Part shown: one piece after another, positions 23,532 through 25,652 of the stretch
Layout of the letters: every line of letters begins with the position of its first letter
Numbering within the stretch: the stretch's first letter is position 1
DNA from: a virus
Taxonomy: Duplodnaviria > Heunggongvirae > Uroviricota > Caudoviricetes
Length of the DNA stretch: 25,652 nucleotides
Virus record (IMG/VR): IMGVR_UViG_2531839479_000006
Strand: one strand, 5' to 3'
Notes under the pieces: model-generated
Seen by the model: the letters and a program-made list of their open reading frames with translations, nothing else
Told to the model about the DNA's origin: nothing
Database searches by the model: none
Made by a program: the position numbers and the translations under genes

Positions 23532-25006
23532 TGGCAATTCTTGATGATGTGATTGGCGTTTTTTCACCAGGATGGAAAGCGGCAAGGCTGCGTTCCCGTG
23601 CGGTGATCCAGGCTTATGAGGCCGTAAAAACGACGCGGACACACAAAGCCCGACGGGAGAACCGAACTGCCGACCAGTTAAGCCAGTACGGGGCCGTGTC
23701 GTTACGTGAGCAGGCCCGTTACCTTGATAACAACCACGATCTGGTTATTGGTGTATTTGACAAGCTGGAAGAACGGGTGGTGGGGAAAAACGGGATTATT
23801 GTCGAGCCACATCCGGTATTACGCAATGGGGCCATTGCCCGTGATCTGGCAGCGGAGATACGTACCCGATGGAGTGAATGGTCTGTCAGTCCGGAGGTCA
23901 CCGGGCAGTTTACCCGTCCGATGCTGGAACGTCTGATGCTGCGTACCTGGCTGCGCGATGGTGAGGTGTTTGCCCAGATGGTTTCCGGGCGCATAAACAG
24001 CCTGACGCCTTCTGCCGGTGTTCATTTCTGGCTGGAGGCGCTCGAGCCGGACTTTATTCCCATGACCAGTGATGAGAGCAACAGGCTGAATCAGGGCGTG
24101 TTTGTTGATGACTGGGGGCGTCCCGAAAAATATCTGGTGTATAAAAGTCGTCCTGTATCCGGACGGCAGATGGAAACCAAAGAAGTGGATGCAGAGCGAA
24201 TGCTGCATCTTAAATTTGTTCGCCGTCTGCACCAGATGCGCGGGACGTCTTTATTGTCCGGTGTGCTGATCCGCCTCAGCGCCCTGAAAGAGTATGAAGA
24301 TTCTGAGCTGACTGCAGCAAGGGTCGCCGCTGCTCTGGGGATGTACATCCGCAAAGGCGACGGACAGAGCTATGAAACGGATGGTAATTACAGCAAGGAG
24401 AATGAACGCGAGCTTACCATTCAGCCAGGCATTATTTACGACGATCTGAAACCCGGCGAAGAAATCGGAATGGTGAAGTCGGATCGCCCAAATCCTAACC
24501 TTGAAACTTTTCGTAATGCTCAGTTGCGTGCCGTGGCGGCGGGCAGTCGTCTGAGTTTTTCCAGTACAGCGCGCAACTATAACGGCACTTACAGCGCCCA
24601 GCGTCAGGAGCTGGTTGAATCCACTGATGGCTACCTGATCCTGCAGGACTGGTTTATTGGTGCCGTCACCCGCCCGATGTATCGTGCCTGGCTGAAACAG
24701 GCTGTGGCATCCGGTGTTATCAGGCTACCCCGCGATCTTGACCGTTCTTCACTGTATACCGCGGTGTATTCCGGACCGGTGATGCCGTGGATTGATCCTG
24801 TTAAGGAGGCTGAGGCCTGGAAAATCCAGATTCGTGGTGGAGCGGCGACAGAATCAGACTGGGTACGTGCAGGTGGTCGTAATCCGGATGATGTCAAACG
24901 TCGGCGCAAGGCCGAAATTGATGAAAACCGCAAGCTGGACCTAGTATTTGATACCGATCCGGCCAGTGATAAAGGAGGCAGCAGTGCCGCAACGAAACGA
25001 CAGTAG
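23531..25006 (+). CDS. Portal protein (lambda gpB-like)
   Basis: About 491 aa starting MAILDDVIG, overlapping the W-like stop. Size, position after W, and a C-terminal acidic/basic tail fit lambda-type portals. Confidence 0.8.
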   Translation: MAILDDVIGVFSPGWKAARLRSRAVIQAYEAVKTTRTHKARRENRTADQLSQYGAVSLREQARYLDNNHDLVIGVFDKLEERVVGKNGIIVEPHPVLRNGAIARDLAAEIRTRWSEWSVSPEVTGQFTRPMLERLMLRTWLRDGEVFAQMVSGRINSLTPSAGVHFWLEALEPDFIPMTSDESNRLNQGVFVDDWGRPEKYLVYKSRPVSGRQMETKEVDAERMLHLKFVRRLHQMRGTSLLSGVLIRLSALKEYEDSELTAARVAAALGMYIRKGDGQSYETDGNYSKENERELTIQPGIIYDDLKPGEEIGMVKSDRPNPNLETFRNAQLRAVAAGSRLSFSSTARNYNGTYSAQRQELVESTDGYLILQDWFIGAVTRPMYRAWLKQAVASGVIRLPRDLDRSSLYTAVYSGPVMPWIDPVKEAEAWKIQIRGGAATESDWVRAGGRNPDDVKRRRKAEIDENRKLDLVFDTDPASDKGGSSAATKRQ

Positions 25007-25202
25007 CCGCAGTACACCGACGACCAGTCCGAAGAATAATTCCTGGTTCAGGATGCAGGCTGGTCACCAGAGTGACGCGGATATTTATATTTATGACGAG
25101 ATTGGTTTCTGGGGGGTTACAGCGAAGCAGTTTATCAGTGATCTGAATGCACTGGGCGATATCACCGTAAGCGTCGTCTCAGCACCGTCTGGCAGATCCT
25201 GA
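24982..25202 (+). pseudogene. Head maturation protease (ClpP-like N-terminus), apparently truncated by an IS insertion
   Basis: GTG start with GGAGG upstream. IYIYDEIGFWGV...LNALGDITVSVVSAPSG resembles the N-terminus of ClpP-type prohead proteases. The ORF stops after about 73 aa just before an IS66-type tnpA. Confidence 0.4.
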
Positions 25203-25652
25203 AATTCCTGAGAGAATAGTGGACACCAAATATGGTGGACGCTATCCATGAAATCATTAACCGCAGTGCGTAAAAAAAGCCCTAATTATCCCGTTGAGTT
25301 CAAAATCAAAATGGTTGAACTCTCGCATCGACCAGAGATCTCCGTAGCGCAACTCGCTCGTGAGCATGGGATCAACGATAATTTGCTGTTCAAGTGGCGC
25401 CAGTACTGGCGCGAAGGAAAACTACGTCCTCCTTCAACAACAGAAAACAACGTGCCTGAGCTGCTCCCGATAACACTTGATGCCGAAGATGTTGTCCCTA
25501 CAACCTCCCCCCGGTCACAACCTGTAGCTGCTGCGACACCTGAATCACTCAATATCAGCTGTGAAGTGACGTTCCGGCACGGATCACTCCGTCTGAATGG
25601 TGCCATCAGCGAAAATATCCTGAACCTGCTGATACGGGAGCTCAAACGTTGA
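25166..25652 (+). mobile_element. IS66-family insertion sequence, left part (continues beyond the window)
   Basis: IS66-type tnpA at 25248-25652. GTAAGCG at 25166-25172 is a candidate IS66-type terminus (these typically begin GTAA). The exact left boundary is unresolved, somewhere in 25166-25247. Confidence 0.45.
25248..25652 (+). CDS. tnpA: IS66-family accessory protein TnpA (Orf1)
   Basis: N-terminal HTH pattern (YPVEFKIKMVEL...SVAQLAREHGINDNLLFKWRQ) and a C-terminal block (EVTFRHGSLRLNGAISENILNLLIRELK) typical of IS66 Orf1. The stop codon is the last triplet of the window. Confidence 0.6.
   Translation: MKSLTAVRKKSPNYPVEFKIKMVELSHRPEISVAQLAREHGINDNLLFKWRQYWREGKLRPPSTTENNVPELLPITLDAEDVVPTTSPRSQPVAAATPESLNISCEVTFRHGSLRLNGAISENILNLLIRELKR

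Follow-up and report, generated by a model that had tools for sequence, protein, structure and literature searches.

The stretch of DNA considered here (the window, 25,652 bp; IMG/VR record IMGVR_UViG_2531839479_000006) covers the left-hand 25.6 kb of a prophage of the lambdoid type from Escherichia coli. Its first bases are the stop codon of the phage integrase gene, and its last bases are the stop codon of tnpA, a gene of an insertion sequence (IS). Close to this right end, a gene for a prohead protease fused to the major capsid protein, which follows the portal gene, breaks off after codon 61 and is joined directly to the left end of ISEc22, a member of the IS66 family. The interpretation developed below is that ISEc22 interrupts the protease/capsid gene of the prophage and that the production of its own capsids has very probably been lost, for which we estimate a probability of close to nine in ten. 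The reference for comparison is the lambdoid prophage adjoining potC in the enterotoxigenic E. coli (ETEC) strain 602354 (NZ_CP025847.1), which is collinear with the window and carries the gene in uninterrupted form. Positions 1-13031 of the window are 97.6% identical to this prophage, and positions 12300-25166 are 99.992% identical, with a single mismatch in 12,867 bases.

The gene preceding the break encodes a lambda-family portal protein of 491 residues (23531..25006, + strand; Pfam PF05136 Phage_portal_2, E=5e-82; TIGR01539, 457.8 bits), which is intact and matches the 602354 portal over its full length at 100% in tblastn. Its 3' end shares 23 nt with the start of the next gene, of which the 5' remnant, codons 1-61 of 675, occupies 24984..25166 (+ strand). 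Two start codons come into consideration. The PGAP annotation of the intact 602354 gene begins at the GTG (L007 12685) that corresponds to window position 24984, and in the window this GTG is preceded at a distance of 5 nt by the Shine-Dalgarno-like sequence AAAGGAGG (24971..24978, + strand; recognized from the sequence). In the RefSeq record of phage cdtI, by contrast, the gene begins at the ATG that corresponds to window position 25053, yielding a protein of 652 aa, of which the remnant would comprise codons 1-38. The GTG at 24984 would be the favoured start because its ribosome-binding site is better. From there, the open reading frame (ORF) contains IYIYDEIGFWGV and runs for 72 aa to a TGA at 25200-25202, in good agreement with the protease frame of about 73 aa that the preliminary description had placed after the portal gene. 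When the intact 675-aa protein is used as a tblastn query, only aa 1-61 find a match in the window, at 100%.

The identity of the interrupted gene is best seen from its intact allele in 602354, a protein of 675 aa with a CLP_protease domain at aa 31-191 and a Phage_capsid_4 domain at aa 375-672 (Pfam), annotated as 'ClpP-like prohead protease/major capsid protein fusion protein'. The N-terminus of the truncated ORF matches the NCBIfam model for this fusion (NF045540, E=6.7e-7) as well as the NCBIfam model for ClpP-related head maturation proteases; the former match is not full-length, covering only profile positions 2-31 with 28.4 bits against a cut-off of 475. Neither 602354 nor phage cdtI has a separate major capsid gene between the fusion gene and the head-decoration gene, and phage Tritos, too, has no separate capsid gene in its annotation. 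In the interrupted gene, the only one of the head module with a capsid domain, a ClpP-like prohead protease is thus joined to a scaffold and the major capsid protein. The preliminary description had referred to a ClpP-like prohead protease gene; a protease domain is indeed encoded, but as part of this fusion and not by a stand-alone gene.

Three independent comparisons place the boundary between phage and IS sequence exactly at 25166|25167. First, identity with the 602354 prophage stops at 25166, where the intact gene runs ...GDIT|HINLHINSPGG... (protein across the break: ...LGDIT-HINLHINSPGGDV...). Second, in an alignment with the prophage of E. coli strain GPEC464, head-gene sequence extends up to ...GATATCACC and shared IS sequence begins at GTAAGCG. 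Third, six other ISEc22 left ends, all with unrelated flanks, start at the identical GTAAGCG. An earlier placement of the boundary at GTAAGCG (25166) or somewhat later was correct in its first option, except that this heptamer starts at 25167. With the boundary fixed in this way, the last 11 codons of the truncated ORF (VSVVSAPSGRS) and its TGA (25167..25202, + strand) represent read-through into the IS inverted repeat, and in all copies this stretch is part of the element. The suggestion that VVSAPSG might still be protease sequence is thereby ruled out, as the intact gene has HINLHINSPGG at this place.

A start of the IS about 13 bp before GTAAGCG was also considered, prompted by megablast hits that began at 25153-25158, and was rejected, the alignment with the uninterrupted gene putting the boundary at 25167. 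The hits began before the true IS end because the left flanks of several ISEc22 copies are alike: the 11-12 bp to the left of independent insertions read GGCGATATCACC, GGCGATATATTC and GGGCAATATCC (window 25155-25166; L002 5001-5012; L003 6001-6011), and several independent left flanks resemble GGCGATAT.... With some six sites seen, this likeness may reflect a weak target-site preference or chance.

The IS sequence in the window (25167..25652, + strand) comprises the left 486 bp of ISEc22, the element being cut by the window end, and is identical at 486 of 486 positions to ISEc22 copies in strains B1_2 (L002) and EC12 (L003). The name is that given by PGAP to the transposase of the identical copies ('IS66-like element ISEc22 family transposase'). 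IS66-family elements have terminal inverted repeats that begin with 5'-GTAAGCG, as described in ISfinder. The left end GTAAGCGT lies at 25167, precisely where homology to the intact prophage ceases, within the left terminal inverted repeat GTAAGCGTCGTCTCAGCACCGTCTGG (25167..25192, + strand), which is shared with the left ends of the six other copies; its complementarity to the right ends found in complete copies, reading ...CCGTCAATACGGTTCTTGCTGCACGCTTAC, is imperfect. The repeat is followed by tnpA (25248..25652, + strand), a complete gene with an ATG start that encodes a helix-turn-helix protein of 134 aa, the IS66-type accessory protein TnpA. It scores 82.8 bits against NCBIfam NF047595 IS66_ISRel24_TnpA ('IS66-like element accessory protein TnpA'; cut-off 74), matches Pfam HTH_Tnp_1 (E=9.1e-12), reaches 98 bits against NF038385, which is under the cut-off of 150, and is identical in DNA to copies annotated as WP_000839179.1. 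Both the IS66-type tnpA starting at 25248 and the interruption of the head gene by an IS66-family element, as initially recognized, are thus confirmed, and the identities of 486 of 486 bases for the IS and 99.992% for the prophage exclude a chance resemblance. The left repeat and tnpA are all that is visible of this copy, with the IS body and right end lying outside the window; this visible part does not differ from the named copies in any position, and the insertion site alone is particular to it.

The complete element is known from four ISEc22 copies of 2454-2455 bp, which carry tnpA-tnpB-tnpC and have the terminus GTAAGCGT at both ends, inverted, within an imperfect repeat. Their tnpB matches TnpB_IS66 (PF05717, E=1.6e-38), and their tnpC matches DDE_Tnp_IS66 (PF03050, E=5e-107) in addition to the IS66 zinc-finger, leucine-zipper and C-terminal domains. 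All four are flanked by 8-bp direct duplications: GTTTATGT, ATATATTC, CAATATCC and GATTCATG. By analogy with these copies, the presumptive target site in the window is ATATCACC (25159..25166, + strand), the duplication of which would be expected at the right end of the IS.

Taken together, these observations suggest that ISEc22, as a 2454-bp tnpA-tnpB-tnpC element, would have transposed into codon 61/62 of the sole head gene, in the same orientation as the late operon. Since the break is at codon 61, the translated product would lose the active site of the protease together with the scaffold-like linker and the capsid domain, and the remnant would encode a peptide of 72 aa, of which 61 are authentic residues and 11 are contributed by the IS inverted repeat. 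The residues that we presume to be catalytic in the intact homologue, by similarity to motifs of E. coli ClpP, are Ser101 (in AASMAS) and His124 (in MIHKP); both lie beyond codon 61 and are absent from the window, in line with the earlier remark that the catalytic part of the protease is missing on the left side. It had further been proposed that capsid maturation would be blocked. A morphogenesis defect is indeed predicted, but it would be worse than a block in maturation because the capsid protein itself, being encoded in the fused gene, would be lost. The prophage is, on this basis, very probably unable to make its own capsids.

The junction is not confined to the window. The junction-specific ORF of 49 aa that starts at the ATG at 25053 is found on six contigs of about 96 kb at NCBI, among them contigs from GCA_000357245.1 and GCA_000357005.2, and the assemblies annotate it as 'ATP-dependent Clp protease proteolytic subunit domain protein'. 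These contigs bear on the question of whether the junction could be an assembly artefact in which a prophage contig was chimerically joined to a repeated IS. In favour of this, the draft contigs terminate inside the IS, as is typical of a repeat-induced break: the contig from GCA_000357245.1 runs for 23 bp beyond the window, into tnpB, and then ends, and that from GCA_000357005.2 ends within tnpA. However, a chimera is made less plausible by the recurrence of the junction on six contigs, which come from two or more separate assemblies, and the break coincides exactly with the canonical IS terminus GTAAGCG, as in a true transposition. An artefact is consequently considered extremely improbable. 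Outside these contigs, an exact search of species-representative genomes with the 38-bp left junction gave 0 hits, and the left junction was not found in 5426 complete E. coli genomes.

Extension of the sequence to the right had been recommended as a means to find the other IS end, the target-site duplication and the rest of the gene. The contig from GCA_000357245.1 does continue the IS by 23 bp, in which the tnpA-tnpB overlap begins as in the named copies, but neither the right end of the IS nor the duplication nor the missing part of the gene was found. The data on this copy do not reach the tnpB/tnpC body or the right inverted repeat, nor the target duplication and the 3' part of the head gene beyond it. 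We infer that a complete IS, an 8-bp duplication of ATATCACC and the gene remainder would follow just beyond. A simple insertion predicts ATATCACC-CACATTAATCTCCATATTAAT after the ISEc22 right end, and the right junction was modelled accordingly as the IS right end, ATATCACC and codon 62 onward, i.e. ...CACGCTTAC-ATATCACC-CACATTAATCTCC..., in which the first canonical in-frame start is codon 98. When aa 62-675 were used in a homology search, no informative fragment emerged: the matches were full-length clusters, apart from a few assembly artefacts from short contigs with internal duplications, and one of these artefacts, P0003, belongs to an unrelated assembly. As a separate observation, internal duplications of the capsid domain occur in several family 'proteins' from contigs of 2-20 kb (P0002, P0003 and P0083; L010), and these give the impression of draft-genome mis-assemblies of prophage head genes that are present in several copies.

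Three points weigh against the interpretation of an interrupted gene with lost capsid production. The window stops 486 bp into the IS and the contig 509 bp into it, so that the right side is outside both; an exact look-up in a collection of 15 billion proteins recovered 0 of 9 predicted downstream-fragment ORFs with canonical starts; and the loss of function is predicted from sequence only. The missing ORFs are weakly compatible with a gene remainder that is absent, altered or not called, and the negative look-ups are of limited evidential value, as they depend both on a called gene and on an exactly identical sequence.

The same results have to be considered for the possibility that the IS marks a rearrangement breakpoint, in which case the remaining part of the head gene, possibly along with the tail genes, would have been deleted or moved elsewhere, either when two ISEc22 copies recombined or when the IS brought about a deletion or inversion next to it, and the prophage would be a truncated remnant. 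The right junction has not been recovered, the left junction is absent from the representative and complete genomes, and none of the predicted downstream ORFs is found, all of which this explanation would accommodate. Several ISEc22 copies per genome are also common: query-like DNA is present in 3216 of the 5426 complete E. coli genomes, and those with matches have a median of 2 matching places and a maximum of 12. Furthermore, IS66-family nests with fragmented portal and protease genes exist. Strain B1_2 (L002 1-7500) contains such a nest, made up of two ISEc22 copies and one ISCro1, which fragments the portal gene and the S49 head protease gene of another lambdoid prophage and represents a more advanced stage of decay. 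On the other hand, each of the 4 complete ISEc22 copies examined is a simple insertion flanked by an 8-bp duplication, the homologous gene resumes directly after the IS in GPEC464, and the negative look-ups carry little weight for the reason given above. We therefore regard a rearrangement as unlikely, and a simple insertion that duplicated ATATCACC as the likely state, since all other complete copies are of this kind.

The closest parallel to the insertion is found in chicken E. coli, where strain GPEC464 and the GPEC strains 606, 1042, 1165 and 1185 carry the same IS in the same orientation in the same target gene. In GPEC464, the element (L001 6569-9022) is flanked by the 8-bp duplication GTTTATGT, and its tnpA-tnpB-tnpC genes stand between two head-gene halves that are both annotated as pseudogenes. 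The GPEC insertion is nevertheless an independent event, located 101 bp downstream of the site in the window and in a prophage backbone that is 91.7% identical. A strong hot spot at the insertion site was considered and rejected: among the 5426 complete genomes, a same-orientation ISEc22 within about 1 kb downstream occurs in these five GPEC strains only, and a single other event of this kind gives no evidence of a hot spot. Other ISEc22 copies lie in or adjoining gpJ, a DUF2190 head gene and a portal gene. That ISEc22 enters head, portal or tail genes of lambdoid prophages above chance, by target preference or through selection for capsid-less lysogens, is very doubtful. Equally doubtful is the idea that the IS transposition genes, co-oriented within a late operon under Q antitermination, might be switched on by prophage induction.

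In the related lambdoid siphoviruses cdtI, Tritos and mEp460, the order of terminase, portal and head genes is the same as in the window, and the head gene of 652-675 aa is uninterrupted. The DNA of the packaging and head module is 98.8% identical to that of cdtI and Tritos and 91.5% identical to that of mEp460. More generally, the window follows the lambda-like order of int/xis, cI/cro, replication, Q, lysis, terminase, portal and head. All queried coding sequences of the 602354 prophage from the integrase to the portal have full-length tblastn matches in it. These are the integrase, excisionase, exonuclease, dicB, the replication genes, two Q-like genes, hokD and RusA, together with a DNA methylase, the holins, the endolysin, the small and large terminase subunits, a W-like gene and the portal. 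The genes for the integrase, excisionase, a 212-aa CI-like repressor, replication, lysis, terminase and portal are all intact, and a cro-like ORF is present as well.

This state of preservation is relevant to the statement in the preliminary description that the insertion fixes the prophage as cryptic, which goes too far. In E. coli O157 Sakai, several lambdoid prophages are defective in head formation, Sp4 among them carrying an IS insertion in the terminase small-subunit gene nu1, and excision and packaging nevertheless occur in head-defective prophages (Sp9, Sp15 and Sp4), apparently with virion proteins of co-resident prophages (Asadulghani et al. 2009, PMC2669165). The authors suggested that the defects are complemented by other prophages with which the morphogenetic genes are shared in nearly identical form (PMC2669165). 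The Sakai prophages have likewise been inactivated piecemeal; the strain, the IS and the target gene differ, and the prophage in the window is known from its sequence alone. By the same logic, a real insertion could have little effect on mobility if the head proteins of a co-resident, near-identical lambdoid prophage complement the defect. The intact genes listed above are in keeping with this, as is the presence of the portal/head-gene segment in up to five places per complete E. coli genome; a compatible helper prophage would, however, be required. Such rescue is possible, though we hold it to be somewhat improbable, and excision, replication and packaging might still take place where another lambdoid prophage supplies compatible head proteins.

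Several further features of the window were recorded. Located between hokD and a Q-family antiterminator gene, a two-gene cassette on the - strand (10603-12955) runs counter to the phage genes on either side and looks like a moron or accessory cassette; it encodes a 406-aa protein with no match in Pfam or PADLOC and a 380-aa NA37-family nucleoid-associated protein (PF04245, E=2e-51). Three tRNA genes with the anticodons CAT, TCG and TCT are located at 17618-17867, between the DNA methyltransferase and holin genes. The CAT tRNA is assigned to Met by ARAGORN, and its 602354 homologue to Ile by PGAP. In Stx phages, the stx genes follow such tRNAs; here, the distance from the tRNAs to the holin gene is only about 190 bp, and hence there is no toxin cargo.

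Two other features concern the relation to the 602354 prophage. The large exonuclease gene (1422-3893, - strand) is 84.6% identical in protein sequence to its 602354 counterpart, with neighbouring genes at 99-100%, and this region is a mosaic patch in the early-left part. The ORF of the 212-aa CI-like repressor (6408-7046, - strand) is intact, with a helix-turn-helix and an S24-like C-terminus, and in the otherwise near-identical 602354 prophage the annotation shows no more than a 112-aa 'LexA family protein' and a cro/cI-family gene with a frameshift. The immunity region may thus be in better shape in the window than in 602354.

Neither the element nor the prophage family nor the type of event is new, and both the disruption of prophage packaging genes by IS elements and defects of prophages in head formation are well documented. 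Annotations of this prophage should mark its protease/capsid gene as disrupted, and the 'Clp protease domain protein' of 49-72 aa in the assemblies should be read as a pseudogene fragment joined to IS sequence. Opening no new question, the insertion adds one more case of IS-driven prophage decay in pathogenic E. coli.

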